61,497 nt of DNA. Origin: Oscillospiraceae bacterium. Its GTDB lineage: Bacteria > Bacillota > Clostridia > Saccharofermentanales > Saccharofermentanaceae. This document shows, in pieces, positions 7,320 through 60,627 of the stretch. The DNA is taken from positions 1 to 61,497 of the forward strand of contig CADBGD010000001.1 of the NCBI GenBank assembly GCA_902794115.1. The letters run 5' to 3'. Below the pieces are notes generated by a model, which saw only the letters and a list, made by a program, of their open reading frames with translations, searched no databases and had not been told where the DNA came from. Each line of letters starts with the position of its first letter. The first letter of the stretch is position 1. The position numbers and the translations under genes are program-made.

Positions 7320-7335
7320 ATGTCTATCTCCTGAA

Positions 7336-35582: not shown

Positions 35583-35871
35583 AAGCCGCCTGAAATGCTC
35601 CTTGGTGCGAAAGTAAAAAACTCATCCTCATTATACCATTCCCCGAACTGTTTCCCCGAAAGTGCTTTTGCCGTGGAAAAAGCACCTTTCTTCCACCTGA
35701 TCCCGTCTTTCGCAAATTGTATTGACATTATCGGGGGTTATGTGACAGTTCCCTTATTTTCAGCCCTTTTGGGTGACGTTTTCCTTATCCGGACGGGGTT
35801 TTCCGCATGATACCATGACACTGTCGAAGGATGGCAAGAGCCTTCGAAACGAATTGCAAGGAGGTATACTT

Positions 35872-37136: not shown

Positions 37137-37170
37137 CCCCGAAAGCCTTGCTCCTCCATGGCTTTCGGGG
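37137..37170. terminator. Strong hairpin terminator closing the NRPS operon; usable from both sides
   Basis: CCCCGAAAGCCttgctcctccatGGCTTTCGGGG (11-bp stem). On the plus strand gttttcattt follows it. It lies directly after the PPTase stop on the minus strand. Confidence 0.8.
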
Positions 37171-37174
37171 GTTT

Positions 37175-37891
37175 TCATTTACTTTCCATCTCAGAAAACG
37201 ACTCTTTCCATCGATCGATATCCGACCTCGTAAGAAAAGTTATCCCGGTACGATGATTCGTTTCTTCTTCCCCTGAAACACAAAGAGCCATCTTGTGATG
37301 TGCATCCAGATCACATGTTTGAAAGAAGAAACGGGTATTCTGCTTCCCGTCAACAAAAAGACAGATCTGTTCCGGTTTCAAACGGAATGAAAAGGAATTC
37401 AGCGGAATACTCATTCCCATTCCTATATTTTTCGTATAACTCTCTTTCAACGTCCATAACGAATAGAACGCAGCCTGTCTTTCCGCCTCAGGAAGCATGT
37501 GAAGATAGGCTATCTCCTCTTTCGCAAAATACTCATCTGCAACAGAGATCTCGATTTCTTCCATCTTCTCCACGTCAATGCCCAGGCTCCGGTCACCAAG
37601 TGCACACACCACCCAATCTCCGGAATGAGATACGTTGAAAAAAATGTCTTTATGATCTTTCAGATACGGTTTTCCATATTCCGTATTCAAAATGCGGCAG
37701 TCCCGGATAGCATATTTTTCCCACAGTGCATACCGGCAAACGATCTCGGCAAACAGACTTCTGATCTTATCCTCATCGAAGCGGAATCTGCTGATTTTGT
37801 CTCTCCGCTCCTCCGAAACGAAGGCAAGATAATCGGAAACCTCCTGAAATCCGCTGATACTATGAATATTGTACGCATACTGATATATCAT
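37175..37891 (-). CDS. Sfp-type 4'-phosphopantetheinyl transferase
   Basis: GKPYL, FNVSHSGDWVVCAL, GIDVEKM and WTLKESYTKNIGMG motifs. Confidence 0.9.
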   Translation of the reverse strand: MIYQYAYNIHSISGFQEVSDYLAFVSEERRDKISRFRFDEDKIRSLFAEIVCRYALWEKYAIRDCRILNTEYGKPYLKDHKDIFFNVSHSGDWVVCALGDRSLGIDVEKMEEIEISVADEYFAKEEIAYLHMLPEAERQAAFYSLWTLKESYTKNIGMGMSIPLNSFSFRLKPEQICLFVDGKQNTRFFFQTCDLDAHHKMALCVSGEEETNHRTGITFLTRSDIDRWKESFSEMESK

Positions 37892-37907
37892 ATCCGTCCC
37901 GAAATGA

Positions 37908-39230
37908 TCACCCTTCTTTATTCTCCTGCTTCTTCCGCAGGATTTTCATAAGCATCTCCCGGGAAACCTGACGGTTCACGCCTGCCTGATTCACAGCCGT
38001 TTCGTATTTCTTCTCCTGCCTGGGTAATACATAGGGTTCAATTTCAGGAATAACCGTCTTCCATACCCTGGCAGAATACTCTTCCTGATTCAGGTCCCTG
38101 TATTGCAAACATTTTTCTTTCATTCTGCCATCCATCAGCCGGGTAATACCCTCAGCTATGTTTTCCGGATCCCACATCTTCGGAGAATACTTTTCAGCAA
38201 TTCCCAGAGCACTCAGGCGGTCCGCATTGTCGGGTCCATCTGTCAAATGCGGCATCAGGAGCTGCGGCAAAGCCGCGTCAACCGCTTCGTTAATTGTTCC
38301 CATACCACCGTGATGAATAATCAGATCCACTTTATTCATCAGCGCGCGCAAAGGGACGTGACGCACACACAGTATCGTGTCCGGAACAGTTTCGGGAATA
38401 TATTCATCATACGGCGTGACAGCAATAGCATAGATATCCGCCATCGAACATGCCTGGATCGCCGTCTGATAAAACTCTTTGCTGACCATCCGGCTGCTTC
38501 CTCCGGTCACGATGACGGTTTTTTTCTTCTTATTCTTTGCTTCCTCCAGAAAAGCACTGACCTCCGGATCAAACTGCACCATTTCCTTTGGCTGTTCCGC
38601 AGCTAAAAAACCGATGGGAACAGCGCATTCCGGCCAGGTTTCATCCGCCTGGGCGTACCACTTCGGCCAGCCGCACAGAATCTTTCCGGGAGAATAGAGC
38701 CAGTCTTTCCAGTTGCTGATTGGTGTCAGTCCAAGTTCTGTCCTTGCCTGGTTGATTTCCTCACAGAATTTTTTTCCAAACAACTGGTCATGTAACTCCA
38801 TATGCGAGAAATAATTCGGAGCAAGAATCATGGATGCATAAGGCAGATGATTCTTTTCTGCCGCAATAAGGCCGGAGATACTCGATCGGTGACGGGCAAT
38901 GATAATGCTGTCCGGTGTGCAGATAGTCTCGATCAGTGCAACCTCGCGAAGGAGTCGTTCTTTTCCGTGATACAGTGTATGGAACCTAATATACTCCTCC
39001 TTTTTCCCGATCGGATCAGCAAGGAGTGCCAGGTCACGGTTCTGCTGTTCATACTCTTCCTTCGTATCAACAGCAATAAACTCCAGTCCTGCTTCTTTCG
39101 CTACATTCTCATACACACAGTGTGTCAGGATCGTGACCTTATGCCCTTCTTCTTTCAGCATTTTACCGAATCGGATAAAGGGATACACATCACCGCCGGT
39201 CCAATGAGTAACCAGTATAATATTCGACAT
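37908..39230 (-). CDS. GT1-family (GT-B fold, COG1819/Gtf-MGT-like) glycosyltransferase
   Basis: N-terminus ILVTHWTGGDVYPFIRFGKMLKEEGHKVTILTH and donor-binding motif HHGGMGTINEA. The ATG overlaps the upstream stop by 1 nt (TGATG). Confidence 0.85.
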   Translation of the reverse strand: MSNIILVTHWTGGDVYPFIRFGKMLKEEGHKVTILTHCVYENVAKEAGLEFIAVDTKEEYEQQNRDLALLADPIGKKEEYIRFHTLYHGKERLLREVALIETICTPDSIIIARHRSSISGLIAAEKNHLPYASMILAPNYFSHMELHDQLFGKKFCEEINQARTELGLTPISNWKDWLYSPGKILCGWPKWYAQADETWPECAVPIGFLAAEQPKEMVQFDPEVSAFLEEAKNKKKKTVIVTGGSSRMVSKEFYQTAIQACSMADIYAIAVTPYDEYIPETVPDTILCVRHVPLRALMNKVDLIIHHGGMGTINEAVDAALPQLLMPHLTDGPDNADRLSALGIAEKYSPKMWDPENIAEGITRLMDGRMKEKCLQYRDLNQEEYSARVWKTVIPEIEPYVLPRQEKKYETAVNQAGVNRQVSREMLMKILRKKQENKEG

Positions 39231-41065
39231 CAGTCTTCTCCATTCATCAATGCTTCAATTTCCTCATCCGACAGACCGGAAAGAAGATTTTCCTCAACCA
39301 GCTTCGCCATTTCCTCGACTGTCATCGGGCGGGAGAAGATCTCTACGAGCGCAATTGTTGTTCCGAAAGCATTATTCATTTTCTTGACCAGACGGTTCGC
39401 CAGAAGCGAGTGACCGCCTAACTCAAGGAAGTCATCACATACACTGACCTGCTCCAGATTAAGAAGTCCCTTCCAGATATCTGCAACCATCTCTTCGATC
39501 TCATTTCTGGGGGCGACATATTCATGAGCATTATCCGCGCTTTCATCTTCCATGCTCATCAGTGCCTTACGATCCACCTTCAAATTGGCAGTCATCGGGT
39601 ATTCATCCACAAAGCGGAAGATATTCGGTATCATGTAGTAGGGAAGCAGCTCCTCCACAAAAGCCTTCAGATCAGATACTGCCGGACGCTCCTCTGATTT
39701 CGTTTTGATAAAGGCCTTGATCTTTGCCTCCGCATTTTCTCCGGTAACGACTACCACAGCCTGCGCCACATCTTTATGCTTCGAAATAGCAGCTTCGATT
39801 TCACCCAGTTCAATACGGTATCCGTGCACCTTGACCTGGAAGTCACTTCTTCCCACATAAACGATATCAGTCTCATTCACACACTTGACAATATCGCCTG
39901 TCTTATAGATACGTCCACGGCCGGGTTCAACCGGATCGGGAATAAAACGCTCATCTGTCAGTTCCTTATTCTCAAAGTATCCACGTGCCACACCGATACC
40001 ACCGATATAGAGATCTCCCTCCATTCCGGTTTCCACCGGTTTCATATTCTGATCCAGCACGTAAATATCCGTCTGATCGATCGGTGCGCCAATCGGAATA
40101 TAGGTGTCTTTCTTTGTAATCTGGTACATAGTCGAATAGATCGTTGTCTCTGTCGGTCCATACACATTCCACAATTGCTCACACCCAAGATCCAGTAAAG
40201 ACTGCGCGAGGCTGATGCTCCAGGGTTCACCGCCGATGAGCATCTTCATGCCATCCAAATCCGGTATTTCGGCATCCAGTAACATATATGCTGTTGACGG
40301 CGTGAATCCGCAAAGATCGATTTTCTCATCTGCTATCAGTTTTGTCAGGAGTGCACCATCTTTTGCTGTTTCGTTATCGGCAACGATCAACGTACCTCCG
40401 TTGATAAGCGGGAGGAACATTTCAGAAATCGAAATATCAAAGGTGATCGTAACTACAGTAAGGCCTCTTTCCGAACCATTCAGATGCAGGTTATCGCTTA
40501 CGCTCAACAGGTAGTTCACCATACCTTCATGCTCCACTTCGACGCCTTTCGGTTTTCCCGTAGAACCGGATGTAAAGATCACATATGCAAGCTGGTGGCC
40601 GCCGCTTAACAGATTCTCGCTGACATAGTTCTCACCATGCAGTATCTCTTCCCAGATGCTGTCGACACAAATCATTTTGGCAGATAATGCAAATGCATCC
40701 TCGTATTTCTTTTCCGTAAGGACCGTGCCGATATGTGACTTTTCAATGATGTACTTGTTCCGCTCGCTCGGATGAGCCGGATCCAACGGCACATATGCAC
40801 CACCGGCCTTAATCACAGCCAGAAGAGAAATGATCATCTTTTCGGAACGGTCCATATAGATTCCGACAAGCGATTCTTTCTGCACACCGGCATCCTGAAG
40901 AATTTTCGCTAACCGTGATACGGCGCCGCAAACCTCTTCGTATGTCATTGAAGTTGAATGGAATTTTAAAGCTTCTTTCTGCGGCTGTTCTTTCGCCCGC
41001 TGCTCCAAAAGTCCAATCAGTGTTACTCCTTTTGTATCTCTCTGTTTACCATGAAAAATGCTCAT
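39230..41065 (-). CDS. Stand-alone NRPS adenylation-thiolation (A-T) protein
   Basis: GGGAGGA RBS. A3 LAYVIFTSGSTGKPKG, A5 NVYGPTETT, A7 YKTGD, A8 GRSDFQVKVHGYRIELGEIE, A10 NLKVDRKAL. Carrier motif FLELGGHSLLA (Ser553). Confidence 0.93.
   Translation of the reverse strand: MSIFHGKQRDTKGVTLIGLLEQRAKEQPQKEALKFHSTSMTYEEVCGAVSRLAKILQDAGVQKESLVGIYMDRSEKMIISLLAVIKAGGAYVPLDPAHPSERNKYIIEKSHIGTVLTEKKYEDAFALSAKMICVDSIWEEILHGENYVSENLLSGGHQLAYVIFTSGSTGKPKGVEVEHEGMVNYLLSVSDNLHLNGSERGLTVVTITFDISISEMFLPLINGGTLIVADNETAKDGALLTKLIADEKIDLCGFTPSTAYMLLDAEIPDLDGMKMLIGGEPWSISLAQSLLDLGCEQLWNVYGPTETTIYSTMYQITKKDTYIPIGAPIDQTDIYVLDQNMKPVETGMEGDLYIGGIGVARGYFENKELTDERFIPDPVEPGRGRIYKTGDIVKCVNETDIVYVGRSDFQVKVHGYRIELGEIEAAISKHKDVAQAVVVVTGENAEAKIKAFIKTKSEERPAVSDLKAFVEELLPYYMIPNIFRFVDEYPMTANLKVDRKALMSMEDESADNAHEYVAPRNEIEEMVADIWKGLLNLEQVSVCDDFLELGGHSLLANRLVKKMNNAFGTTIALVEIFSRPMTVEEMAKLVEENLLSGLSDEEIEALMNGED
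39290..39514 (-). other. Carrier (T/PCP) domain of the A-T protein; the acidic tail occupies 39233-39295
   Basis: LGGHS with Ser553 (codon 39407-39409). The tail reads EENLLSGLSDEEIEALMNGED. Confidence 0.8.
39551..41032 (-). other. Adenylation domain of the stand-alone A-T protein (approximate)
   Basis: Core motifs A1-A10. Hand-extracted specificity code D-I-S-G-L-G-V-I-Y-K. Confidence 0.8.
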
Positions 41066-41119
41066 TTCTATTTTCCTCCCGTTTGTTTTTATGTTGGTTT
41101 TTCACGATCTTCTGTATTT

Positions 41120-44100
41120 TTATGTAATGGAAAAGGCCTTCTGTATCCTTCTGTAGAATTCCTCATCAGAAACCCCGTGCATATGGAATCCCATACCCAC
41201 GTAGACCTTATCACCATCAAGACAGCATTCGATGCCTTCCTGCGCACTCTGACTGCCCAAATTGTATATCTCGATCTGATTCATTTCTTCACTCATCATA
41301 TCGATCGATTCTTTCAGGTTCACTACCGGTACATCATCACAAATACCTGAAGCATATTCATCTCCAAGGAAATGGTATTCCGCGCTCCCCTCTTTCAGCT
41401 TATCGATCGCCTCATCGTAGAAACAGATCTCCTGCCTCTTTTTGTCGTACACACAGGGAATGTAGTCGATGTAATATCCGATCGTATTCATTGAACGGTC
41501 ATCCCGGCAGTGGTACAGCATAAAGAACGGTATCGAACTCAGGTCTTTCGTATCACTGATTTCACTGAACTTGGACATAAGCCATCTAACATCGTAAGTG
41601 ACATTCTCGTCCTTCTTCAGCGTGACACTAAAGGACTTGTTTTCATATGTACCGGCAGATCTCGCTTTATAAAGCTCAATACTGGACAGGATCGTCCCGC
41701 TGTCTTCTTTGCTGTGTACAGACTTTTCTGCCGTATTCCGGCACTGTATGTAATCGCTGTACGTCAGATCATCCGGCTTTGTGCTCCCTGACTGGTTAAG
41801 GTATGTCTCCAGAAGATCTGCCGCCACATCACAGCTGCTTCGATCCCACAGTGCATGATTGGCCGCGATGTACACATCAAAGGAGCCGGTACCCGACTCG
41901 GTAATCAGGATCACAGGTAAAATATCTATTCCGGATCTAACCTCATGTGCAAAAAGACATGTCGCAGCAGACTCTCTGCTGACTGCCTGAGATGCGGATA
42001 GATACGGAATTTTCCATTCACCAAATGAATACTCCGTGATTTTTTCCTGCTCATCGGAATAACAGGAACGCAGTGCACTTTGATCCCGCACCATATCAGT
42101 CAGTGCTTTCTGGATCTGCGAAACCGTAGCTCCCGAAATGTGGAAACATACACCGATGATCGAAGATTCATCTGTGGAAAGATGCAGATAATACTTCTGC
42201 ATGTTGTTCGGCTTGTAACTGCTGACGATACTCTTTCCCTTCAGATTGTTCTTATATTCAGCTATGGCTTCAATAACGCCTTCGTTATGGACTTTTTTCC
42301 CTTCGATCACCGGCGGCTCAAACATGGAGATCTTAATTGCTGACTTGTCGGCATTCACAGAGGAAGATATCTCTTCATCCGCATCCATTCCTAAAACCTG
42401 AGCCAGTTGCGAAATCGTCCTGTACGTGTGCAGGTCTTTTGTCGAAACAGGAATGTTGAACAGTTTCAGTTTGGCAGAAACACGGATCGCTTTCAGTGAA
42501 TTTCCGCCCAGTTCAAAGAAATCATCCTGTATGCCGACTTTCTCCACATCAAGAATCTCTTCAAATACAGAAGCCATCGTCCTTTCCGCCTCATTTCGCG
42601 GCGCGATGTACTCTTTTCCGGTACTTGCTTCAATTACCGGAAGGGCCCGCTTATCCAGTTTTCCGTTTCTGTTTACCGGTATCTTTTCAATCCGCATCAT
42701 ATACGAAGGGATCATGTAATCCGGAAGATTTTTTCCGAGTTCACTTCGGATCAGAGAAATGTCCATTTCGTCCTGGCTGACGAAATACGCGTAAATTGCC
42801 TTATCACCGGACGATTCTTCTCTAACGATCACAGCACAATCCTTAATGCCTTCAATCTCTCTGAGGCGGCTATCGATCTCTCCCAGTTCAATTCGGAAGC
42901 CTCTCACTTTGACCTGTTCATCGATTCGTCCGAGATACTCCACATTGCCATCCGGAAGCCATCTTGCAAGGTCACCCGTGTGATACAGTCTTCCTGTTCC
43001 AAACGAATTGGGAGCAAATTTCTCCCCGGTCAGTTCCGGACGGTTCAAATAGCCTCTTGCCAATCCGTCTCCGGCAATACAAAGCTCGCCGGGAACACCG
43101 ATTCCACACAGATGATCTTTATCCACGATATAGATCTGCGTATTGCTGATCGGTTTTCCGATAGGGATGCTGGCATATTCTCCCTCAATCTGGAAGCAGC
43201 TTGACCATACTGTAGTTTCGGAAGGACCGTATACGTTTTCGATCACGGCATCCGAGGCTGCCTTCAATCTGGAAACCACTTCCATACCTACAGCTTCGCC
43301 TCCAAGCATGATGTACCGCATTCCGGCAAACACTTTCGTTTCCGGATCCTGTGCAAAGAACCCTTTTATACGGCTCGGCGTAGTCTGCAGGATCTCGATC
43401 CCGTTTTCCACAACGAGTTTTTCAAATGCAGCAAGGTCACTTTGCTCTTCACTTGTGGCCACATATATAGTCATACCATTGCAAAGAGTTAATATTGCTT
43501 CTGTGACAAAGATATCAAACACAAGGTTCGTGACAGACACAAAGCGGCGAAGTCCGTTTTTGTATGCGTATGTCATCGTACTCTTATCTGATACAAAAGA
43601 GTAGTTCACAACATTTTGATTCTTGATCATGACACCTTTCGGTTTTCCGGTTGTGCCCGATGTATAAATACAATAGAGCAGATCCTCCGGGCATGTCACA
43701 TGTTCCGGATTGGAAGAGGTGCCGGAATACAGTTCCGGATCAGCCAGATCAATTCTAATGATATCTGTATCCAGGCTTGTCTTGTACGTCAGCACAGCCT
43801 TAGGAGAAGCATCTTCCAGCATATACTCGATTCGGTCCTTCGGATACGCAGGATCCATGGGAAGATACGCTCCTCCTGCTTTCATAACTCCGTAGATGGC
43901 AATAATCATTTCCAGGCTTCTTTCCGTAAAAACGGCAACAAAGTCATTCGGTTTCACGCCCAGTTTTCTCAATCGGTCAGCGAGCTGGTTGGCTTTTTCA
44001 TTGAGCTCGGCATACGTGAGGCTCTGTCCATCGTATACAACAGCGGTTTCATCAGGTGTATTTGCGACTGCCTCTTCAAACATCTCCACCACGGTCTTTT

Positions 44101-51682: not shown

Positions 51683-51722
51683 CTGTCTTTCCTTTTCTCT
51701 TGTTCCTTTTTCCGAAGTCAGT

Positions 51723-53660: not shown

Positions 53661-53709
53661 ACATCATTCCTCCTTTGAAACAATGGAAAGAAATAGAAGT
53701 GTATCGTTC

Positions 53710-54453
53710 TTATTTGATCAAATCATCGAAACGGGCAAACTTGATTCCCATATCCACAAAAGCCTTTATGATAGGTCCAAACATCTCATTTGTCTGCGGA
53801 TGATCATGGATGACTATGAGATCTGCCGAACCGGGATAGTTAAGCCCCATCCATCTGTCCGGAAGATCCAGCTCCATCATTTCCAGCACATCATCTAATG
53901 TACGGACTCCATATGGCGGATTCTCCTGATATACACACCACTCCATGGCATCATATGTCCAAAGCCAGTCCACACGCCCGGATTTCCGGAATGCATCAAA
54001 ATACGGGTAGGTGATTTCCTGAAATGACGGGAGCACATATCCGTTTTCTTTTAAAAAGGACTGTATGCTCTCGACCCGTTCTTTTTCCTCTTGCGAATAG
54101 TCCAGATCATAAAAACCACGGGTGACCCCTTCATTTCCATATGGAAAACGGAAAAACTTGGCCGGTCTCTTTACTCCCGCTTTTTCATAGATCCGTTCTA
54201 TCATCTGATCATTCAGCAGGATCTCTTCTTTTGCCTGTTCCAAAGTCAGCTCAGAGAAGTTCGGGTGGGAACATGCATGATTACCGATAATGTGGCCACT
54301 TTGAATGGTATAAAGAACATCATCTTCTCTGATATCCATAAATCGCTTCTCGCAAAACCAAACCGCCTGAATACCATACTGATTTAATATGTCCACTTTT
54401 TCACGGCGGGCCACAGAAGGGCCATCGTCAACTGTCAGGTACGCTTTTTTCAT
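53710..54453 (-). CDS. Polysaccharide deacetylase (CE4 / NodB homology domain)
   Basis: Start at MKKAYL (GGAGGT RBS). Motifs LTVDDGPS, GNHACSHPNF, FRFPYG and LIVIHDH. Confidence 0.88.
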   Translation of the reverse strand: MKKAYLTVDDGPSVARREKVDILNQYGIQAVWFCEKRFMDIREDDVLYTIQSGHIIGNHACSHPNFSELTLEQAKEEILLNDQMIERIYEKAGVKRPAKFFRFPYGNEGVTRGFYDLDYSQEEKERVESIQSFLKENGYVLPSFQEITYPYFDAFRKSGRVDWLWTYDAMEWCVYQENPPYGVRTLDDVLEMMELDLPDRWMGLNYPGSADLIVIHDHPQTNEMFGPIIKAFVDMGIKFARFDDLIK

Positions 54454-54492
54454 ATATACCTCCATGTTCACTTATACTGATTTTCTTTGTAT

Positions 54493-55866
54493 TTACTTGT
54501 TTTCTCTTTTTTTGAGGCTCAATCGCAGCCGTGCTCTCTGCTCATCGGTGAGTTTCTGTATACGCTCACCGGGCGCTTTTTTCTCACAGGATTCCGAAGT
54601 ATTTATTTGCTTTGCTTCCGTTCCCTGCTTCCGGTTAATGGAATACACGTAGTCATCATTACCTATCATCTGCTCAACACGATCAGCTGCTACCGAGATA
54701 CCACGGTTTTCCGCCATCTTCTCAACACATATCCGGTATTTTTCCGAGCCGCGATTTGCCATAAGAGAACGGATCATGTCAGCGACTTTCTCCGGCTGCC
54801 AGTTTCCTGGAAGCAGATAGTCACCCACACCCTGTTCCTTGATCAGTGTTGCATTATACGGTCTGTCTCCATATCCGGGCAGAATCAGTTGCGGTATACC
54901 GATCGCCATTCCTCCCGTAACTGTTCCGATTCCGCCGTGATGGATCAGAACACTTAGTTTCGGCATGATTTCATCAAGTGGGATATATTTGTACCAAACC
55001 ACATTCGAGGGCAGTTCTTTTGGAATAAACTCATCATACTTGCAAAGAACAACGGTCGGCTGGCCAATGATTCCACACGCCTCTATGCTGCTGGTATAGA
55101 AGCTGGCGTCGATCATGGTCGTAGTGCCTCCGGTAATCAGGATCGGATTCGGATTCTTCTCCAACCAATTTGCAAAGTCTTCCGGAATCTCTCTTTGGTA
55201 AGCCGCTTTTCCCTGCTCAAGCGGAAAACCGACCGGATCAATTTTCGTCGGCCACTGATCATCCACATGATCAAACCAGTCCGGCCATAGGGCCAGCGTC
55301 ATTTTTGCACTGCCTTCCCACTGCAGCCAAGAATCTATCGGATCCAGACCAACTGCCTTGCGAAGTTCATTTAAACGAGGAACATCATTCTTTCCTTCGA
55401 GATCTTCAAACAGCAGCATACTGGCTACTTCCGACGGATAACCGATCACAGTGGCCAAAGGAAGCTTTCTCTTCTCCGCCACCATATACGCAGCTACACT
55501 GGAACGGCTCTTGCAAAGAAGAACTGTATCCGGGCTTTGACAGCAGGAGTCGACGATTTTATATTCTTTCAGTCTTAACTGAATGTTTTCTGTACTTTGC
55601 CTGAACTCATTTGATGAATATGAAAAATTACTGCTTTGGAAAGCATGATCATCTTTATTCCGATACATCAGATCCACCAATGCATCGTACTCTTCCGGAG
55701 TATCCCACGGAACAAAGTCCAGCCCGGCCTTCTCAGCCATACCGGCAAAGTGACAGTGCGTAACCAGCGTTACGTGATGACCTCGTCTTTTCAGTTCTGT
55801 ACCAATCCGGACATAGGGAATCACATCCCCATCCAGCCAATGGGTGACAACAACAACATTCGCCAT
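54493..55866 (-). CDS. GT1-family glycosyltransferase, paralogue of 37908-39230
   Basis: Start at MANVVVVTHWLDGDVIPYVRIGTELKRRGHHVTLVTH, by homology with the paralogue's N-terminus. Donor motif HHGGIGTVTGG. The track start at 55995 is a TTG without an RBS. Confidence 0.85.
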   Translation of the reverse strand: MANVVVVTHWLDGDVIPYVRIGTELKRRGHHVTLVTHCHFAGMAEKAGLDFVPWDTPEEYDALVDLMYRNKDDHAFQSSNFSYSSNEFRQSTENIQLRLKEYKIVDSCCQSPDTVLLCKSRSSVAAYMVAEKRKLPLATVIGYPSEVASMLLFEDLEGKNDVPRLNELRKAVGLDPIDSWLQWEGSAKMTLALWPDWFDHVDDQWPTKIDPVGFPLEQGKAAYQREIPEDFANWLEKNPNPILITGGTTTMIDASFYTSSIEACGIIGQPTVVLCKYDEFIPKELPSNVVWYKYIPLDEIMPKLSVLIHHGGIGTVTGGMAIGIPQLILPGYGDRPYNATLIKEQGVGDYLLPGNWQPEKVADMIRSLMANRGSEKYRICVEKMAENRGISVAADRVEQMIGNDDYVYSINRKQGTEAKQINTSESCEKKAPGERIQKLTDEQRARLRLSLKKRENK

Positions 55867-56099
55867 ACCAACTACCTGATCTATGGCTCCATTGCTTTTT
55901 GTCGGTTCTATGCACCCCCATATTTTCTGCACAGCCCGCTTTAATTTCGCACTTTGCTCAGCAAACAAAACCCAACCCACTGGGCCGCCGCGCAAAAAGT
56001 GTCATTATATAGAAAAAGAGACTACAGAAAAAAGTCGACAAAAAAACTACTTTTTTACCAAAAAATCATTAATCCTTTCTTCGTTTTCCTTCCTGCTTA

Positions 56100-56108
56100 A
56101 TTATATCA
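56100..56108 (-). promoter_or_regulatory. Extended -10 element TGATATAAT upstream of the GT-NRPS operon
   Basis: The minus strand reads ggtgTGATATAATtaag, in the 296-nt gap between the ABC genes and the first GT. The nearest TTGAAA is 24 nt away, so there is no proper -35. Confidence 0.35.
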
Positions 56109-56162
56109 CACCAGACGGTCTTTCGATTCTTTCAAAAGTGAAACATTGTGACATTTCTTCCA

Positions 56163-58115
56163 TCACTCCAATTCAAAAGCACCCGTGTACAGCTGGTAGT
56201 ATTTTCCTTTTTCAGCCACGAGTGAAGCGTGGTCTCCCTGCTCGATAATACGGCCATTTTCCAGCACCATGATCATCTCACTGTTTTTTACGGTGGAAAG
56301 CCTATGTGCAATAACAAATACCGTGCGGTTCTCCATCAGCGCATCCATTCCACGCTGCACGATCGCTTCTGTACGTGTATCGATCGAACTGGTTGCTTCA
56401 TCGAGGATCATGACCGGCGGATCAGCCACAGCGGCACGGGCGATCGAAATCAGCTGGCGCTGACCTTGAGACAGTTCCGAACCGTTTGCCGTCAGCAAAG
56501 TATCATACCCTTGCGGAAGCTTACTGATGAAATCATGTGCATTGGCCAGTTTGGCAGCAGCGATACATTCTTCCTCCGTCGCCGAAAGATTTCCGTAGCG
56601 GATATTTTCCATGACAGTTCCCGTGAAAAGTTGAGTGTCCTGAAGCACCACGCCAAGCGAGCGGCGCAGGTCCGCCTTCTTTATTTTATTAATGTTGATA
56701 TCATCGTAGCGGATCTTTCCATCTGCTATGTCATAGAAACGGTTGATCAGATTTGTGATCGTCGTTTTTCCGGCACCGGTTGCACCGACGAAAGCAATCT
56801 TCTGCCCCGGCATGGCATGTAAAGTGATATCGTGAAGCACGGTCTTCTTTCCGTCATAACTAAAATCCACCCCTGAGAAACAAACTTCGCCACGCACAGG
56901 TGAGTACGTCAATGTTCCATCCCCATGCGGATGTTTCCACGCCCAAACATAATCATCATTAGAGTTATGGACAAGCGGCGTCTCCTTCGAAACCTCTATC
57001 AGTTTTTCCCCATCTTTCCGGCAACGCACTAGCGTAACATATCCTTCATCCGGCTCGGATTCTTCATCTAGAAATTGAAAGATTCTTTCCGCCCCGGCCA
57101 TCGCCATATTAATGGCATTCATCTGTCCCGACATCATCGATACCGGTTCTACGAAAGCACGTGTCAGCTGCAGGAAAGATGCAATCACTCCGACAGTAAT
57201 GACGCTCAACTGACAACGGATCGCCAAAAAACCGCCGATAAACGCTACCAGTACATACAGAACTTTTCCGATGCTGTCTGTCAACGGCATCATAATATTG
57301 GCAAAGATGTTCGCCTTCGTCGAATTCAAACAGAGTTCATCATTCTTATGGTCGAATCTCTGTATAGCACGCTTCTCATACGTAAATACTTTAATGACTT
57401 TCTGACCATTGGCCATCTCTTCAATATAACCATTCACATTTCCAAGCGAATCCTGCTGTTTCATGAAGTACTTTGCGCTTTTTCCTCCGACCTTTCCAAT
57501 CAGGAAAAACATTGCCGCCGTACCCATGATGACGGGGATCGTCAATTGCCAGCACAGGAAAAGCATGCCGATCAGATTGGCTGCAAAGGAGATACAAGAA
57601 GAGAGTGTGGTAGGGATACCTTGGGAAATCATCTCCTTCAGGGCATCTACATCATTTGTGTAATGACTCATCACATCTCCGTGTGCGTGAGTATCGAAAA
57701 ACGAAAGCGGAAGAGTCTGCATGTGACGGAACATTTCATCACGGACATTCCGTAATACATTGTTAGCAATCACCATCATGATCTGTGCCGAAAAGAACTC
57801 CACCAGTACCGCAAATCCATACAATAGCCCGAGTTTTCCGATCCATGTTGCTAGTCCGGAGAAATCCACCGCGTTTATTCCTGATGTTTCCGCCGTTTTC
57901 AAAAACGGCATCACGTAGTCATCGAGCAAGTCTTTTATAAACACATTACTCAAAACAGCAACAATAGAGGCGAGAATTATACAAACGACGACCAGACACA
58001 GTAGTAATTTATATTTCCCGGTCAGATAGGAAAGCAAGCGCTTGATATTCTTCATAGAAAGCGGACTTTCCTGCGGTTTTTCCTGTTCCATTGTTTCCTC
58101 ATCGATGACAGACAT
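56163..58115 (-). CDS. ABC exporter half-transporter (TMD-NBD) with a canonical ATPase site
   Basis: Walker A GATGAGKTT, signature LSQGQRQ, Walker B plus catalytic Glu VMILDEATS. The ATG overlaps the upstream stop (TAATG). Confidence 0.92.
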   Translation of the reverse strand: MSVIDEETMEQEKPQESPLSMKNIKRLLSYLTGKYKLLLCLVVVCIILASIVAVLSNVFIKDLLDDYVMPFLKTAETSGINAVDFSGLATWIGKLGLLYGFAVLVEFFSAQIMMVIANNVLRNVRDEMFRHMQTLPLSFFDTHAHGDVMSHYTNDVDALKEMISQGIPTTLSSCISFAANLIGMLFLCWQLTIPVIMGTAAMFFLIGKVGGKSAKYFMKQQDSLGNVNGYIEEMANGQKVIKVFTYEKRAIQRFDHKNDELCLNSTKANIFANIMMPLTDSIGKVLYVLVAFIGGFLAIRCQLSVITVGVIASFLQLTRAFVEPVSMMSGQMNAINMAMAGAERIFQFLDEESEPDEGYVTLVRCRKDGEKLIEVSKETPLVHNSNDDYVWAWKHPHGDGTLTYSPVRGEVCFSGVDFSYDGKKTVLHDITLHAMPGQKIAFVGATGAGKTTITNLINRFYDIADGKIRYDDININKIKKADLRRSLGVVLQDTQLFTGTVMENIRYGNLSATEEECIAAAKLANAHDFISKLPQGYDTLLTANGSELSQGQRQLISIARAAVADPPVMILDEATSSIDTRTEAIVQRGMDALMENRTVFVIAHRLSTVKNSEMIMVLENGRIIEQGDHASLVAEKGKYYQLYTGAFELE

Positions 58116-59842
58116 TACTCCTCGCCTCCCTTCTTCTGAGATTCATATACTTCCCGGTATATATCATTGTCGGCCAAAAGTTCCTGGTGGGTGCCGATAC
58201 CACTGATCCTGCCTTTATCGATCACGATGATTCTATCCGCGTTCTCTACGGAAGAAATACGCTGGGCAATAATCAGCTTCGTCATTCCCGGAATCAATTC
58301 AGAAAAACCTTTCTGAATCTGGGCATCCGTTTTCGTATCGACCGCACTGGTCGAATCATCCAGAATGAGGATCTTCGGCTTTTTCAAAATGGCGCGGGCT
58401 ATACAGAGCCTCTGCTTCTGTCCGCCGGAAACATTGGTTCCGTCCTGTTCAATATACGTGTCGTATCCCTTCGGGAAAGACCGGATAAAAGAGTCCGCCT
58501 GAGCAATCTCACATGCCCGTCTCATCTCCTCGTCCGTTGCTTCCGCATTTCCCCAGCAAAGGTTCTCCCGGATCGTACCCGAGAAAAGAACATTTTTCTG
58601 AAGCACCATGGTTACATTGTCACGGATGACATCCAAATCATAATTCCGCACGTCGACTCCGCCGACTTTGATCCTTCCGGATGTGACATCATAAAGTCGC
58701 GGGATCAGCTGTACCAGAGAAGATTTTCCGCTTCCGGTCCCGCCTATGATTCCCACTGTTTCTCCGGAACGGATATGCAGGTCGATATCTGACAGGCAGC
58801 ACTTCTCCTCGTCATTGGAATAACTGAATGATACATTTTCAAAATCTATGGAGCCGTCTTTCACTTCCAGGATCGGTTCCTCCGGATTTCGGATATCCGG
58901 TTCCTCTTCCAGTATTTCAGCAATACGAGCTGCCGACGCACGGGAAATGACGAGCATAACAATAATCATCGACACCATCATCAGGCTCAGCAGTATCTGC
59001 ATGGTGTAGGTAAACATAATCGTCAGTTGTCCGGTCGTCATCTCCTTCTTTACGACCAGTTTTGCGCCGAACCAGGAAATCAGAAGCATTGCCGTATAGA
59101 TGCTGGACATCATGATCGGGCTGTTGAAATTCAGTGCTCTCTCCGCTTTTACCGAGTCGTTTCGAATACTGTTGGATACAGATGTGAATTTCTCGGTTTC
59201 ATGTTCTTCCCGCACATAAGATTTGACAACACGGATACCACGTACATTTTCCTGAACAACATTATTCATCCGGTCGATCTTAGTAAACATGCGGGTAAAG
59301 ATCGGCTGTGCATAGCGGAAGATAAGATACAAACCGATCAGCATCAGTGGTGCAATACCCAGGAATATCAGTGCCAGTCTGGTATTGATCGTAAAAATCG
59401 CCGTCATAGCAAATATCAGCATGATCGGTGCCTTTACCGCAATCAGAATTATCGTCTGATACGCATTTTGCACATTCATCACATCTGTCGTCAGTCTTGT
59501 GATGATACTGGACGTTTTAAACTTATCTATATTGGAAAATGAGAATTTCTGCAGCTGGCAAAACATATCGTGTCTAAGATTCCGGGCAAATCCGGAGCTT
59601 GCTTTGGCGGCAAAACTTCCGGCTAAAGCTCCGAATGCCAGATATGCCAGCATACACACCAGAATCAGAGTCCCCATCCACCATACGTAGTCCATGTTGG
59701 ATTTTTCAACACCTTCATCGATCAGTTTTCCCATAAGGAACGGCATAATTACTTCCATGGCAACCGCCAGAGAAACCAGGACCGGTGAAAGGATAGATGG
59801 TTTTTTATACTCTCTTACCGAGAGCAGGAGCCTCTTGATCAT
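58115..59842 (-). CDS. ABC exporter half-transporter (TMD-NBD) with a degenerate catalytic residue
   Basis: Walker A GGTGSGKSS and signature VSGGQKQ. Walker B ILILDDSTS has Asp in place of the catalytic Glu, as in heterodimeric exporters. The start overlaps the TE-II stop by 4 nt (ATGA). Confidence 0.92.
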   Translation of the reverse strand: MIKRLLLSVREYKKPSILSPVLVSLAVAMEVIMPFLMGKLIDEGVEKSNMDYVWWMGTLILVCMLAYLAFGALAGSFAAKASSGFARNLRHDMFCQLQKFSFSNIDKFKTSSIITRLTTDVMNVQNAYQTIILIAVKAPIMLIFAMTAIFTINTRLALIFLGIAPLMLIGLYLIFRYAQPIFTRMFTKIDRMNNVVQENVRGIRVVKSYVREEHETEKFTSVSNSIRNDSVKAERALNFNSPIMMSSIYTAMLLISWFGAKLVVKKEMTTGQLTIMFTYTMQILLSLMMVSMIIVMLVISRASAARIAEILEEEPDIRNPEEPILEVKDGSIDFENVSFSYSNDEEKCCLSDIDLHIRSGETVGIIGGTGSGKSSLVQLIPRLYDVTSGRIKVGGVDVRNYDLDVIRDNVTMVLQKNVLFSGTIRENLCWGNAEATDEEMRRACEIAQADSFIRSFPKGYDTYIEQDGTNVSGGQKQRLCIARAILKKPKILILDDSTSAVDTKTDAQIQKGFSELIPGMTKLIIAQRISSVENADRIIVIDKGRISGIGTHQELLADNDIYREVYESQKKGGEE

Positions 59843-60552
59843 TGTTTCTTCTCACCTTCTTTCAAGTACTTTCGAAGATAAGAAACGAACTCTGTATGGT
59901 TATTAAATGCAAAGAAATGGCTGCCTTTAAAGACGTGAAGAGAAAAATCCTGTCCGGTATACTTTTCCCATTCCTGCATATCCTCCGGGGGAGTTTCCTC
60001 GTCCTCCTCACCGAGAAGAGCCAAAAGAGGCACATGGATCTTCCTTTCTTCATAGGAACGCGTATACCGGGTAAACATCTGCACATCAGCATATAAGATA
60101 TCGGCAATCATATCCATCAGTTCCTCACATTCAAGGATCTCCGGTTCAAACTGTCCTCTGGAAATGATCGTCTGTAAAAGTTCTTCTCTGGATAATTCAT
60201 GTAATTGAATGCCTTTATTCCGCATATGAGGCGGCCGGCTTGCGGCAACAATGACTGCTCTGGGAAGCTTGTCTGTTTTCTTTTCCAGAACATATGCCGT
60301 CTCCAGCGCAATTAAAGCACCCATACTGTGCCCGTAGATTACATAATCAGAAGGGTTCTGCCGGAGGATCGTTTCAGAGATCTCCTCCGCTGCGGCTTCA
60401 ATACTGGAATAATAGGGATCACAAAACCGGCTGGCATGTCCGGGGTACTCAATAGGGCAAACTTCGATTTCCGGTTTCAATTCTGAAATCCAGTCTCGAT
60501 ATATACTTGCACTGCCTCCTGCATAAGGCAATGCAAACATCTGCATGCTCAT
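59839..60552 (-). CDS. Type II (stand-alone) thioesterase
   Basis: N-terminus FALPYAGGSASIYRDW, nucleophile elbow YGHSMGA, about 237 aa, GrsT/SrfAD-like layout. Confidence 0.9.
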   Translation of the reverse strand: MSMQMFALPYAGGSASIYRDWISELKPEIEVCPIEYPGHASRFCDPYYSSIEAAAEEISETILRQNPSDYVIYGHSMGALIALETAYVLEKKTDKLPRAVIVAASRPPHMRNKGIQLHELSREELLQTIISRGQFEPEILECEELMDMIADILYADVQMFTRYTRSYEERKIHVPLLALLGEEDEETPPEDMQEWEKYTGQDFSLHVFKGSHFFAFNNHTEFVSYLRKYLKEGEKKQ

Positions 60553-60618
60553 AATTTATCTAAAGTATAAGGATCCCCACCTTATACTCCTTTCGCATTA
60601 TTTCCCCATACCTATTGT

Positions 60619-60627
60619 ATTCTATCA
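60619..60627 (-). promoter_or_regulatory. Extended -10-like element TGATAGAAT upstream of the TE-II/ABC genes
   Basis: The minus strand reads tttgTGATAGAATac, about 65 nt upstream of the TE-II ATG. Confidence 0.3.

Follow-up and report, generated by a model that had tools for sequence, protein, structure and literature searches.

Glycosylated nonribosomal peptides are already known as a kind of product, and the described systems closest to the present locus likewise combine a nonribosomal peptide synthetase (NRPS) with soluble GT-B family-1 glycosyltransferases, namely the Gtf enzymes of vancomycin and teicoplanin and Gtf1-3 of the glycopeptidolipids. In teicoplanin, GlcNAc is transferred and then de-N-acetylated by a deacetylase of the LmbE type, and the mycobacterial glycopeptidolipids are tetrapeptides. 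In pactamycin assembly, a carrier-bound intermediate is reportedly glycosylated with GlcNAc by PtmJ and then deacetylated by PtmG, and in the streptothricin logic a GlcNAc-derived, deacetylated amino sugar is N-acylated by a T-C protein. Terminal condensation-like release domains are found as the terminal C domains of the rhabdopeptide/xenortide systems.

The locus considered here lies in a stretch of 61,497 nucleotides (the window) whose source is an uncultured Clostridia bacterium of the rumen with 99% identity to MAG RUG14762. With a probability of roughly 0.7, judged from sequence and with the proposed pathway included, the whole locus would form a single biosynthetic gene cluster, the product of which is a small nonribosomal peptide with glycosylation, most likely four residues long and bearing an amino sugar. 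It encodes an NRPS ending in a divergent domain (C*), a stand-alone A-T didomain, two glycosyltransferases (GT1a and GT1b), a CE4 de-N-acetylase, a kinase/uridylyltransferase fusion (kinase/NT), a thioesterase (TE-II), two ABC half-transporters (ABC1 and ABC2), and a phosphopantetheinyl transferase (PPTase). PDB searches with GT1a and GT1b return GtfA, GtfB, and GtfD among their matches, although no solved glycosyltransferase shows more than very low identity (best E 1e-19). However, the deacetylase is CE4 and not LmbE-type, and the cluster has neither the P450/X-domain crosslinking and Hpg/Dpg genes of the glycopeptides nor the lipid-loading FadD/PKS genes and terminal reductase of the glycopeptidolipids. 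Moreover, unlike in both groups, the producer is an anaerobic member of the Clostridia and the glycosyltransferases travel with the stand-alone A-T protein, not with the main synthetase.

Organisation and recurrence of the locus

The preliminary description proposed eleven minus-strand genes running head to tail, and direct reading of the sequence bears this out, the eleven ORFs, their overlaps, and their short gaps all lying where it had placed them. TE-II and ABC1 overlap in ATGA, ABC1 and ABC2 in TAATG, and A-T and GT1b in TGATG, while 296 nt separate the ABC2 stop (56163) from the GT1a ATG (55866) and the remaining intergenic gaps measure 16-54 nt each. The family annotations given earlier are backed for every gene by Pfam and NCBIfam, and PDB sequence searches agree. 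No MbtH-like motif occurs in the six frames of the window and no P450, acyl-ligase, or ACP family was found in Pfam scans of 29 of the larger ORFs outside the cluster, as had been stated.

The 296-nt intergenic region (55867..56162, minus strand) carries a promoter-like element, an extended -10 TGATATAAT with TATAAT at 56105-56100, to which TTGAAA-17-TATAAT of the relative L014 aligns. The promoter considered possible earlier is thus visible as a -10-like element and, as regards activity, is a sequence-level candidate. The same region contains a terminator-like leader hairpin with a T-run (55987-55969) and matched no family in an Rfam search. Transcription would probably comprise a TE-II-ABC1-ABC2 unit and a second unit starting from this region. 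At the opposite end, between convergent genes, the GC-rich 11-bp hairpin described earlier (37137..37170; CCCCGAAAGCC, a 12-nt loop, and GGCTTTCGGGG) was found both in the sequence and in the folding energies, which, in kcal/mol, are -25.2 for the minus strand (z -3.7) and -27.8 for the plus strand (z -5.5), with 0 of 200 shuffles folding as well. The T-run after the stem is better on the plus strand and, therefore, the hairpin probably also, or mainly, ends the convergent DUF5050 gene (35773-37092), being probably a shared or bidirectional terminator.

Immediately upstream of TE-II, and absent from the preliminary description, lie the C-terminal 271 aa of a MacB/FtsX-type ABC permease (60663..61478, minus strand; Pfam FtsX 1.2e-18), cut by the window end. 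In the near-identical contigs L001-L006, this permease has 836 aa (MacB_PCD+FtsX), preceded by an ABC ATPase and directly followed by TE-II. The two relatives examined have no MacB/FtsX gene at the same place, L014 showing an unannotated 172-aa ORF near the contig end and L016 a C39-peptidase ABC transporter. The permease may serve additional export or immunity, whether it belongs to the cluster is uncertain, and the upstream cluster boundary may lie beyond the window end.

A-T and GT1b, together with GT1a and CE4 where the contig reaches, recur beside C-starting NRPSs in about eight further lineages, including the cultured Sporanaerobium hydrogeniformans, with A-T identities of 44-85%, shuffled gene orders, and different flanks. 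GT1b directly follows A-T wherever both are visible (the window, L020, L022, L025, L026, L027, L028, L030, and L031). The order GT1a-CE4-kinase/NT-NRPS is conserved in relatives L014-L017 (kinase/NT 85-86% identical), and C*/A-T/GT1b/PPTase recurs in Firm_16, L027, and L028. The order is NRPS-C*/PALP/A-T/GT1b/GT1a/CE4/PPTase in Ca. Scatonaster, A-T/GT1b/GT1a/C-A-T-TE-MFS/CE4/PPTase in Sporanaerobium, TE-II/GT1a/CE4/A-T/GT1b/NRPS in L030, and A-T/GT1b/CE4/GT1a/NRPS in L031. Comparative genomics thus upholds the earlier view of a single system, the GT1/CE4/A-T set and an NRPS recurring together.

The synthetase, its terminal domain and the stand-alone A-T protein

The NRPS (41120..51682, minus strand; 3520 aa), whose ATG start is backed by a AAAGGAAAG ribosome-binding site, contains three C, three A, and three T domains by Pfam in the layout C1-A1-T1-C2-A2-T2-C3-A3-T3-C*, with HHxxxDG motifs at residues 167, 1196, and 2213, and identifiable T-domain serines, while E, TE, and R domains are lacking. 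Ahead of C1 comes a basic leader at the N-terminus (51608-51682). C2 finds its match in the TycC6 domain, of the LCL type (1e-112), and C1, far more divergent than C2 and C3, has LCL domains as its closest types (7e-46, against 7.5e-28 for the surfactin starter C) and resembles these more than starter or DCL types. The A-domain codes, DTESIGTVCK, DGWYLASVCK, and DITQMGVVWK, were read through reference codes, none matching exactly.

The last roughly 400 aa (C*; residues 3121-3520, 41123..42322, minus strand; motif ANHALWDRSS) do not figure in the earlier annotation of the NRPS. At E<=1, C* has no Pfam match save a chance DUF2461, the Condensation model not detecting it. It aligns by hhalign with canonical C domains (99.5%, E 1.1e-21, 349 columns), and a fold search with its AF2 model (pLDDT 68.8) finds the C superfamily only, the fungal TqaA CT (5DIJ/5EJD) being the top match and the enacyloxin domain Bamb_5915 (6CGO) ranking 10th. 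By profile and modelled fold, C* is a divergent C-superfamily domain; it keeps the catalytic His and Asp of the C3 motif and has Asn, not His, at the first position of HHxxxDG. Its relatives number only 72 among 1.84 billion representatives; it occupies the extreme C-terminus in all 29 of the best-matching relatives checked, and the three relatives with a nameable source organism are all Clostridia. Like TqaA CT, C* is C-terminal and follows the last T domain, and Bamb_5915 is likewise terminal; however, sequence identity to domains of this type is only 10-13%, and C* has its own conserved motif, (N/H/Q)HxxWDxxS. C* is a probable chain-release domain, as predicted from its sequence and position, and in Sporanaerobium a cis TE stands where C* would be. 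The stand-alone type II thioesterase TE-II (59839..60552, minus strand; 233-237 aa; PF00975 1.3e-39, nucleophile motif GHSMG), the orthologues of which adjoin the cassette in L030 and L016, had been assigned to editing or release; the family stands but, given C* at the NRPS end, release is not necessarily its task.

The A-T didomain (39230..41065, minus strand; 611 aa; AMP-binding 2.6e-79, PP-binding 2.1e-09) has the specificity code DISGLGVIYK and an acidic C-terminal tail, LSDEEIEALMNGED (39233-39277). It is the best-conserved cassette protein (84% identity in Firm_16, 77% in Scatonaster, and 50% in Sporanaerobium), its closest counterpart in the PDB is module 2 of LgrA (4.4e-189), which activates Gly, and it stands ahead of C-starting NRPSs in L026, L030, and L031. 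Across lineages, conservation extends both to the acidic tail of A-T and to the basic leader of the NRPS. The best reading of these sequences is that A-T would be an in-trans loading module for the starter residue. Moreover, since the NRPS partner varies (one to three or more modules) and A-T is best conserved, the constant acceptor is most simply the A-T residue.

The order in the window, NRPS then A-T, is also compatible with A-T acting last. In this rather unlikely alternative, C* would join the T3-bound tripeptide to the (glycosyl-)aminoacyl-S-T, TE-II would release the product, and C1 would be a starter C taking acyl-CoA or another donor, which agrees with the marked divergence of C1, with the presence of a stand-alone TE beside an NRPS devoid of a cis TE, and with the colinear position of A-T directly after C* in the window, L020, L025, L027, and L028. 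However, in Sporanaerobium, L030, and L031, A-T precedes a C-starting synthetase and C* is not seen, the Sporanaerobium synthetase ending in a cis TE and the L030 and L031 contigs ending inside the NRPS. Furthermore, C1 prefers LCL domains over the starter C, no acyl-ligase or ACP gene occurs in the scanned window ORFs, and the basic leader before C1 makes a natural partner for the acidic tail of A-T, both being conserved. Under in-trans loading by A-T, the short peptide of 3-4 residues suggested in the preliminary description would be a tetrapeptide, since there are four A domains.

Sugar genes

GT1a (54493..55866, minus strand; 457 aa; EryCIII-like_C 6.9e-15, UDPGT 4.6e-09) fits its short start, from residue 1 of which orthologues of 455-459 aa align, and is only distantly related to CalG1 and a sterol glycosyltransferase. 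Its orthologues in L014, L016, Scatonaster, Sporanaerobium, L030, and L031 are 43-75% identical, and GT1a adjoins CE4 in every locus showing both genes, except Sporanaerobium. GT1b (37908..39230, minus strand; 440 aa; EryCIII-like_C 1.2e-15, Glyco_transf_28 2.6e-09) is 34% identical to GT1a and translationally coupled to A-T by overlapping stop and start codons. The best PDB relatives of both reach E 1e-19 to 1e-17, those of GT1a covering the C-terminal half only, and neither the sugar nor its donor can be read from the GT1 sequences; GT1a is a candidate HexNAc transferase because it is paired with CE4. Both C-terminal extensions finish in a basic helix (54496-54555 in GT1a and 37911-37970 in GT1b), but profiles built from these tails and from the NRPS leader fail to find each other; the statistics therefore lend no support to a docking motif common to them nor, in consequence, to glycosylation on the carrier.

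The CE4 (NodB-type) de-N-acetylase (53710..54453, minus strand; 247 aa; PF01522 3.3e-20) has all five motifs (TVDDG, HACSH, RFPY, DAMEW, and IHDH) and orthologues 56-74% identical in the cassette loci. Its ORF is open back to a GTG at 54471, the ATG at 54453 behind GGAGG being the likelier start, and since the domain begins at residue 2 of this short form the enzyme has no signal peptide and is cytoplasmic. The proposed logic resembles that of pactamycin in having a substrate on a discrete carrier, GlcNAc added while tethered, and de-N-acetylation, whereas the pactamycin carrier is an ACP with a polyketide-type unit and here it is an A-T didomain with an amino acid; such timing is suggested solely because A-T and GT1b are coupled. 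As in streptothricin, the deacetylase would unmask a sugar amine beside stand-alone NRPS parts, and by analogy this amine could be the nucleophile for a C-type domain, although the Sporanaerobium cassette has neither C* nor an extra C domain.

The fusion of a GalK-family sugar-1-kinase and a GalU-type UTP:sugar-1-phosphate uridylyltransferase (51723..53660, minus strand; GHMP_kinases_N 9.7e-14, NTP_transferase 2.1e-21) carries the motifs GRLCLFGEHSDW and CGRVDQ, its kinase half being GalK-type and its uridylyltransferase half matching GalU TIGR01099 at 1.9e-46, under the cut-off; in the PDB it matches YngB/GalU (1.3e-33) and galactokinase (7e-11). Homologues at 85-86% identity share the NRPS context, and those at 60-73% lie in capsule- or teichoic-acid-type polysaccharide loci. 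By this distribution, kinase/NT is an accessory specific to this lineage, with loci for cell-surface polysaccharides as the source of its recruitment. Thus, the self-sufficient gene content claimed earlier holds for the families, but kinase/NT does not belong to the core.

Both glycosyltransferases might instead serve self-resistance or inactivation in the manner of Mgt/OleD, masking the peptide inside the producer without building the final structure, since in NCBIfam the two match best the subfamily of macrolide glycosyltransferases (MGT, TIGR01426; 1.4e-23 and 1.5e-18). We consider this improbable, as the scores are 83.6 and 67 against a cut-off of 260 (about 40 against 700 for Mgt), two glycosyltransferase types and a cytoplasmic deacetylase are kept as a set with A-T across all lineages, and Pfam scans found no reactivating secreted glycosidase in or beside the cluster. 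Manufacture of a cell-envelope glycan by GT1a, CE4, kinase/NT, and GT1b, with the NRPS a chance neighbour, is strongly disfavoured, for although CE4 enzymes are usually cell-wall enzymes and kinase/NT has the capsule-type homologues mentioned, the GT1/CE4/A-T set stays beside NRPS genes despite rearranged orders and different flanks, no priming transferase, flippase, or polymerase occurs in the scanned ORFs, CE4 has no signal peptide, and the GT1b start overlaps the A-T stop codon.

Proposed pathway and the cluster family

In the favoured reading of a glycosylated nonribosomal peptide, priming, A-T loading, and export rest on family assignments, and we infer timing, substrates, and partners. 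The Sfp-type 4'-phosphopantetheinyl transferase (37175..37891, minus strand; ACPS 3.6e-17, AASDHPPT_N 9.1e-13), whose orthologues are the last cluster gene in L025, L027, L028, and L029, would prime the four carrier domains, and the A-T protein would activate and tether the starter amino acid, at a guess a small residue such as Ser, because the Gly-derived pocket is opened and more polar. The two GT1 enzymes would place a sugar or disaccharide on this residue, either while it is still bound to the A-T carrier or once it forms the N-terminus of the completed peptide, GT1a adding an N-acetylhexosamine as one sugar that CE4 would convert into a free amino sugar; in this lineage, kinase/NT could top up the UDP-hexose donor from free sugar. 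The A-T cargo would pass to C1, the acidic tail probably docking on the basic leader, and three LCL-type modules would add Lys-like, Phe-like, and Gly-like residues to give an all-L tetrapeptide. C* would then release the chain through an intramolecular nucleophile, a small-molecule nucleophile, or water, and TE-II would edit mis-primed carriers. ABC1 (58115..59842, minus strand; ABC_membrane 8.9e-46, ABC_tran 2.2e-30), MsbA-like yet under curated cut-offs, and ABC2 (56163..58115, minus strand; ABC_membrane 2.9e-43, ABC_tran 6.8e-29) are half-transporters with TMD and NBD that probably heterodimerise and would export the product.

The cluster family appears uncharacterised. By its gene content, the cluster is a member of a small family in anaerobes that shares a cassette of a loading enzyme, two glycosyltransferases, and a deacetylase.

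Organisation and boundaries of the glyco-NRPS locus

The minus-strand region 37137-60627 had been read in the preliminary description as a compact glyco-NRPS cluster, and this interpretation of the locus as a real, coherent biosynthetic cluster is supported. All eleven co-directional genes are present as described, and every gene family named is upheld by both Pfam and NCBIfam, namely a thioesterase (TE-II), two ABC half-transporters (ABC1 and ABC2), two GT1 glycosyltransferases (GT1a and GT1b), a CE4 deacetylase, a fusion of a GHMP kinase with an NTP-transferase (kinase/NT), the NRPS, a stand-alone A-T didomain and an Sfp-type PPTase. Stop and start codons overlap, as proposed, at TE-II/ABC1 (ATGA), ABC1/ABC2 (TAATG) and A-T/GT1b (TGATG), a gap of 296 nt separates the ABC2 stop (56163) from the GT1a ATG (55866), the remaining intergenic spacings are of 16-54 nt, and the synthetase (41120-51682) has its expected 3520 aa from the ATG at 51682. 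TE-II is a stand-alone alpha/beta hydrolase of ~240 aa (PF00975, 137 bits) with GHSMG as its GxSxG motif, and the PPTase has ~230 aa in two lobes, with AASDHPPT_N and ACPS both above Pfam cut-offs. The reported absence of MbtH-like and P450 genes was also borne out: a search of the window for the MbtH motif returned none, and no P450 was found among the cluster genes and the 29 other window ORFs scanned.

The 296-nt gap had been proposed to hold a possible promoter. An extended -10 element, TGATATAAT, lies at 56108-56100, upstream of GT1a; its alignment with the TTGAAA-17-TATAAT promoter of a relative (L014) is the ground for the promoter call, whereas a simple sigma-70 scan reported none there. 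An Rfam search of the window and of the gap returned no riboswitch and no leader RNA. The leader that follows the promoter-like -10 also contains a short GC hairpin with a T-run behind it (55969-55987, minus strand), ~100 nt ahead of GT1a, and it could be an attenuator.

At the other end, the GC hairpin of 11 bp (37137-37170) was confirmed and is much more stable than shuffled sequence, with free energies of -25.2 and -27.8 kcal/mol (0 of 200 shuffles as good). Since the better T-run 3' of its stem is on the plus strand, the convergent DUF5050 gene (35773-37092) probably shares this hairpin. Beyond TE-II, a MacB/FtsX-type permease gene (60663-61478, minus strand) runs off the end of the window. 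The same proteins as in the window occur on rumen and gut metagenome contigs of 65-67 kb, and in these near-identical contigs (region 1-3011 of L001) the full-length permease has 836 aa, is preceded by an ABC ATPase gene and immediately precedes TE-II in the same orientation; it was not seen at that position in the relatives L014 and L016. The role of this permease could be that of a second exporter or of an immunity pump and, therefore, the cluster may reach past the window. The stretch from the C-terminal domain of the NRPS to the PPTase is 97-99% identical to MAG RUG14762, which is labelled "Ruminococcaceae bacterium".

Elsewhere in the window, two predicted proteins, at 17657-18958 (plus strand) and 6006-7475 (minus strand), carry a C-type lectin domain (PF00059, 5.4e-13) and a Lectin_like domain (PF18560, 1.5e-07); PF00059 is probably uncommon in bacteria. 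In addition, a 403-aa ORF at 24116-25327 (minus strand) fuses a Peptidase_S51 domain, of the cyanophycinase/dipeptidase E family, to a NUDIX hydrolase domain.

The synthetase and its terminal domain

The NRPS has the repeated C-A-T modules of a linear, type A enzyme, with three C, three A and three T domains by Pfam (C1-C3, A1-A3, T1-T3), followed by ~400 residues without a Pfam match. The HHxxxDG motif appears as HHIVYDG, HHIVGDG and HHIVGDG in C1-C3, the T domains carry their Ser in GGHSL, SGHSL and GGNSL, and the core Asp235 and Lys517 are kept, as code positions 1 and 10 are D and K in all four A domains of the NRPS and the A-T didomain. No E domain was found in the NRPS, nor a terminal TE or R domain in cis, there being neither PF00975 nor an NAD-binding domain in its 3520 aa. 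C2 is clearly of LCL type (TycC6, 1e-112) and C1 is divergent, scoring 7e-46 with LCL domains versus 7.5e-28 with the surfactin starter C domain and 1.7e-23 with the TycB 6TA8 chain. C2 and C3 are 69% identical and C1 is 31-34% identical to either; modules 2 and 3 look recently duplicated, and T2 has SGHSL in place of GGHSL. Judged against reference codes, the code of A1 (DTESIGTVCK) is presumably Lys-like, that of A2 (DGWYLASVCK) presumably Phe-like and that of A3 (DITQMGVVWK) presumably Gly-like. An above-cut-off score with the AusA (aureusimine) equivalog was rejected as a multi-module artefact, being a sum over seven stretches with the R domain absent.

The C-terminal stretch, here C*, is a divergent terminal condensation-like domain. 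It gave no match to PF00668 even at E<=1 and nothing in a PDB sequence search, and a word-indexed protein search returned only two relatives. Only 72 turned up when 1.84 billion representatives were searched exhaustively with phmmer, and in all of the best 29 the domain forms the very C-terminal end of an NRPS-type protein. Its degenerate C-domain motifs are PNNMQKYYL, ALRSCY and ANHALWDRSS, the last corresponding to a common (H/N/Q)HxxWDxxS, with xHxxWD kept by 28 of the 29 sequences whose alignment spans the motif. The profile of this family matches canonical C domains in hhalign (99.5%, E 1.1e-21, 349 columns), with motifs C1, C2, C3 and C5 falling at matching positions and both catalytic residues, His and Asp, present. 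A single-sequence AlphaFold model reached a pLDDT of only 35, and a five-sequence alignment gave a mediocre but usable 68.8; the Foldseek matches of the latter are all C, E or CT domains with a probability of 1.00, at TM-scores of only ~0.4 for a model of that pLDDT. The top fold match is the macrocyclising fungal CT domain of TqaA, and the search confirms membership in the superfamily without distinguishing among its subtypes. Thus placed at the end of its protein, C* is probably a release domain, a prediction for which the fungal CT domains, enacyloxin Bamb_5915 and the rhabdopeptide terminal C domains are functional precedents, although C* constitutes a separate and rare sequence family. 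The three named relatives are from Clostridium mediterraneense and Wukongibacter, and isolate-derived NRPSs bearing C* include WPM83492.1 (P0137, Wukongibacter baidiensis) and WP_265327640.1 (P0318, Clostridium mediterraneense). The label of the former reads just 'NRPS', a hint at a targeted deposit, possibly from a natural-product study.

The A-T didomain, the sugar enzymes and their recurrence

The A-T, GT1b, GT1a and CE4 genes recur as a cassette, wholly or in part, in rearranged loci from rumen, goat omasum, horse faeces and one cultured isolate. The order C*, A-T, GT1b, PPTase is found in Clostridiales Firm_16 (L025; identity to the window 33%, 84%, 66% and 52%, respectively), and NRPS-C*, A-T, GT1b, PPTase in the MAG GCA_054275235.1 (L027; A-T 81%) and in a rumen metagenome contig (L028; A-T 84%). 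Ca. Scatonaster coprocaballi (L020/L024) has NRPS-C*, PALP, A-T, GT1b, GT1a, CE4, PPTase and GNAT, with identities of 77% for A-T, 64% for GT1b, 59% for both GT1a and CE4 and 35% for C*. The cultured Sporanaerobium hydrogeniformans (L026) has A-T, GT1b, GT1a, C-A-T-TE-MFS, CE4 and PPTase, with identities of 50% (A-T), 48% (GT1b), 49% (GT1a) and 57% (CE4), and two metagenome contigs read TE-II, GT1a, CE4, A-T, GT1b, C... (L030; A-T 65%) and A-T, GT1b, CE4, GT1a, C-A-T-C-A... (L031; A-T 44%). Of the proteins of the cassette, the stand-alone A-T is conserved best. It adjoins GT1b in every locus showing both, mostly overlapping or 3-4 nt apart, and GT1a adjoins CE4 in every locus showing both except that of Sporanaerobium.

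Several of these loci have features of their own. In Sporanaerobium (PEDL01000010.1; L026, 5125-10599), a 1824-aa ORF with Condensation, AMP-binding, PP-binding, Thioesterase and MFS families seems to combine a one-module NRPS and an exporter of its own in a single protein. In Ca. Scatonaster (L020), the PLP-dependent PALP enzyme lies between the NRPS and A-T (2818-4185), and the GNAT acetyltransferase that follows the PPTase (10180-10623) could re-acylate an unmasked sugar amine. In a sister rumen lineage (L016, 6244-9978; L017), where kinase/NT is 86% identical, two TE-II paralogues flank GT1a-CE4 and a C39-peptidase ABC transporter replaces ABC1/ABC2; these swaps show a fixed core with exchangeable genes for export and editing around it.

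The A-T didomain (39230-41065) stands before a synthetase that starts with a C domain in three loci (L026, L030, L031), and in Sporanaerobium there is no C*, only a TE in cis, so A-T is most simply read as a loading module acting in trans. If A-T were instead the last module, receiving the chain from C*, the assembly line would be colinear with the gene order of the window, but the loci without C* and the LCL-like character of C1 speak against this arrangement, which we consider unlikely. Orthology of C1 to the Sporanaerobium C domain was not found, as C1 is 30% identical to it and C2 and C3 are 33-34% identical. In the loader role, A-T could be joined to its partners by docking, as the acidic tail NLSDEEIEALL at its C-terminus is kept across all lineages and a conserved basic leader, EKRQLLLKMLSKKKQK and variants, precedes the first C domain in every partner synthetase; a docking pair of this tail and leader is plausible by inference. 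The best solved match of A-T is the second module of LgrA (4.4e-189), which activates Gly. Its code, DISGLGVIYK, is invariant in relatives at least 65% identical, one relative at 55% has DISGLGMIYK, and more distant ones carry DILQLGV(I/V)WK, the canonical glycine code. The changes of L to S, Q to G and W to Y would open the pocket and raise its polarity, and a small polar residue, e.g., Ser, is a low-confidence guess at the substrate.

Both glycosyltransferases have the Glyco_transf_28 N-lobe, a C-lobe with EryCIII-like_C and UDPGT above Pfam cut-offs, and the HHGG(x)GT donor motif (HHGGIGT and HHGGMGT). They are 34% identical to each other and only distantly related to any solved GT. Self-resistance enzymes of the Mgt/OleD/OleI type, which inactivate macrolides, would offer another role for them within a GT1 framework, yet TIGR01426 gives 83.6 and 67 bits versus a cut-off of 260, NF033129 scores ~40 versus 700, and no reactivating glycosidase was seen in or next to the cluster, making this role quite improbable. 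GT1a and GT1b extend 40-60 aa beyond the GT-B fold and end in conserved Lys/Arg-rich helices (at 54496-54555 and 37911-37970 of the window, respectively, minus strand), e.g., SREMLMKILRKKQENK and DEQRARLRLSLKKRENK. Such basic tails occur in most orthologues (L014, L016, L020, L025-L031), including six of seven of the GT1a type; the GT1b-type protein of L032 is ambiguous. The helices look similar to the basic NRPS leader, but a docking motif common to them and the leader was not supported, as each HMM found only its own protein among 398 window ORFs and, therefore, only charge complementarity with the acidic A-T tail remains. CE4 (PF01522, 72.7 bits) shows TVDDG, HACSH, RFPY, DAMEW and IHDH, set against TFDDG, H(S/T)xxH, RxPY, DxxDW and LxH, and these are conserved in four orthologues. 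With five catalytic motifs and no signal peptide found, it is a predicted cytoplasmic deacetylase.

The kinase/NT (51723-53660) joins a GalK-type GHMP sugar-1-kinase, with GEHSDW and CGRVDQ (reference GEHxDY and CGxMDQ), to a GalU-like NTP_transferase by Pfam; its PDB matches are YngB/GalU (1.3e-33) and galactokinase (7e-11), and its score with the GalU equivalog is 158.8, below the cut-off of 326.8. It has at least 8000 homologues, the few with a source name being labelled Lachnospiraceae. All three homologues examined at 60-73% identity sit in capsule- or teichoic-acid-type polysaccharide loci (L011, L012, L013), and those at 85-86% identity show the GT1a-CE4-kinase/NT-NRPS arrangement of the window. 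This protein is a lineage-specific recruit.

The claim that the sugar genes and the NRPS form a single system is supported by the cassette, which recurs with NRPSs in rearranged loci, with kinase/NT as an accessory of this lineage. The cassette loci differ in gene order and flanks, and the partner synthetase has from one to three or more modules; recurrence despite this variation is strong evidence for joint action of the NRPS and the sugar genes. That envelope glycan genes adjoin the NRPS by chance is contradicted by the conserved synteny and is very hard to credit. Moreover, since the partner synthetase and the surroundings vary and the residue supplied by A-T is the constant part, this residue is suggested as the target recognised by the glycosyltransferases.

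A possible route to a glycosylated peptide

The short glycosylated peptide expected as the product is in keeping with the four A domains and with the conservation of GT1 and CE4 genes alongside A-T and the NRPS. In the proposed route, the PPTase would prime the carriers and A-T would load a starter residue, which GT1b and GT1a would glycosylate; kinase/NT would raise a UDP-hexose pool from free sugar. GT1a would probably add a HexNAc, because it pairs with CE4, which would turn the HexNAc into a free amino sugar. C1 would take the starter, the three modules would lengthen the chain to an all-L tetrapeptide, C* would release it with TE-II in an editing role, and ABC1/ABC2 would export the product.

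That glycosylation takes place on the carrier, rather than after release, is a minority hypothesis. In its full form, GT1b and GT1a would be recruited through their basic C-terminal helices to the acidic A-T tail and would build a disaccharide on the carrier-bound aminoacyl thioester, CE4 would then free the amine of the sugar, and the glyco-amino acid would serve the NRPS as starter; in lineages bearing C*, this domain would take the sugar amine as nucleophile and close a macrocycle through the amino sugar. We give a probability of roughly 0.15 to this reading as a whole, i.e., a portable, docking-mediated system of on-carrier glycosylation for NRPS priming. Pactamycin, in which GlcNAc is transferred to a carrier-bound substrate and then deacetylated, offers a precedent for such a sequence of steps.

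Nonribosomal peptides decorated by GT1 enzymes are a known kind of product, including glycopeptide antibiotics, teicoplanin, whose pathway includes GlcNAc and deacetylation steps, and mycobacterial glycopeptidolipids. However, clusters of the vancomycin class encode an NRPS for a heptapeptide, including an X domain, alongside Oxy P450s and the genes that supply Hpg/Dpg, whereas the window has four A domains, no P450 among the cluster genes and 29 other ORFs scanned, and no X domain or Hpg/Dpg genes among the window genes scanned. Likewise, the glycopeptidolipid cluster combines a four-module Mps NRPS that has a terminal reductase with lipid loading by FadD/PKS, an MbtH protein and an MmpL exporter, whereas the window genes scanned include no R domain, FadD, PKS or MmpL, and the MbtH motif is missing. 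None of the NCBIfam equivalogs fits the cluster and the database names are all generic; the best available judgement is that the cluster family is uncharacterised. To our knowledge, no glycosylated nonribosomal peptide is known from strictly anaerobic rumen or gut Clostridia.

The locus defines a small, recurrent family in which a dedicated didomain for loading is accompanied by two glycosyltransferases and a deacetylase and joins synthetases of varied length. Its interest is increased by the portability of this A-T/GT/GT/CE4 cassette, by the rare terminal condensation-like domain, whose (N/H)HxxWD type would be an as yet uncharacterised kind of release domain missed by standard domain models, and by a cultured relative, Sporanaerobium hydrogeniformans, which gives experimental access to the family. 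If the cassette works as proposed, it would represent a modular route by which the first residue of a peptide gains an amino sugar, useful in pathway engineering, and would provide an experimental handle on the role of cationic glycopeptides in gut communities.
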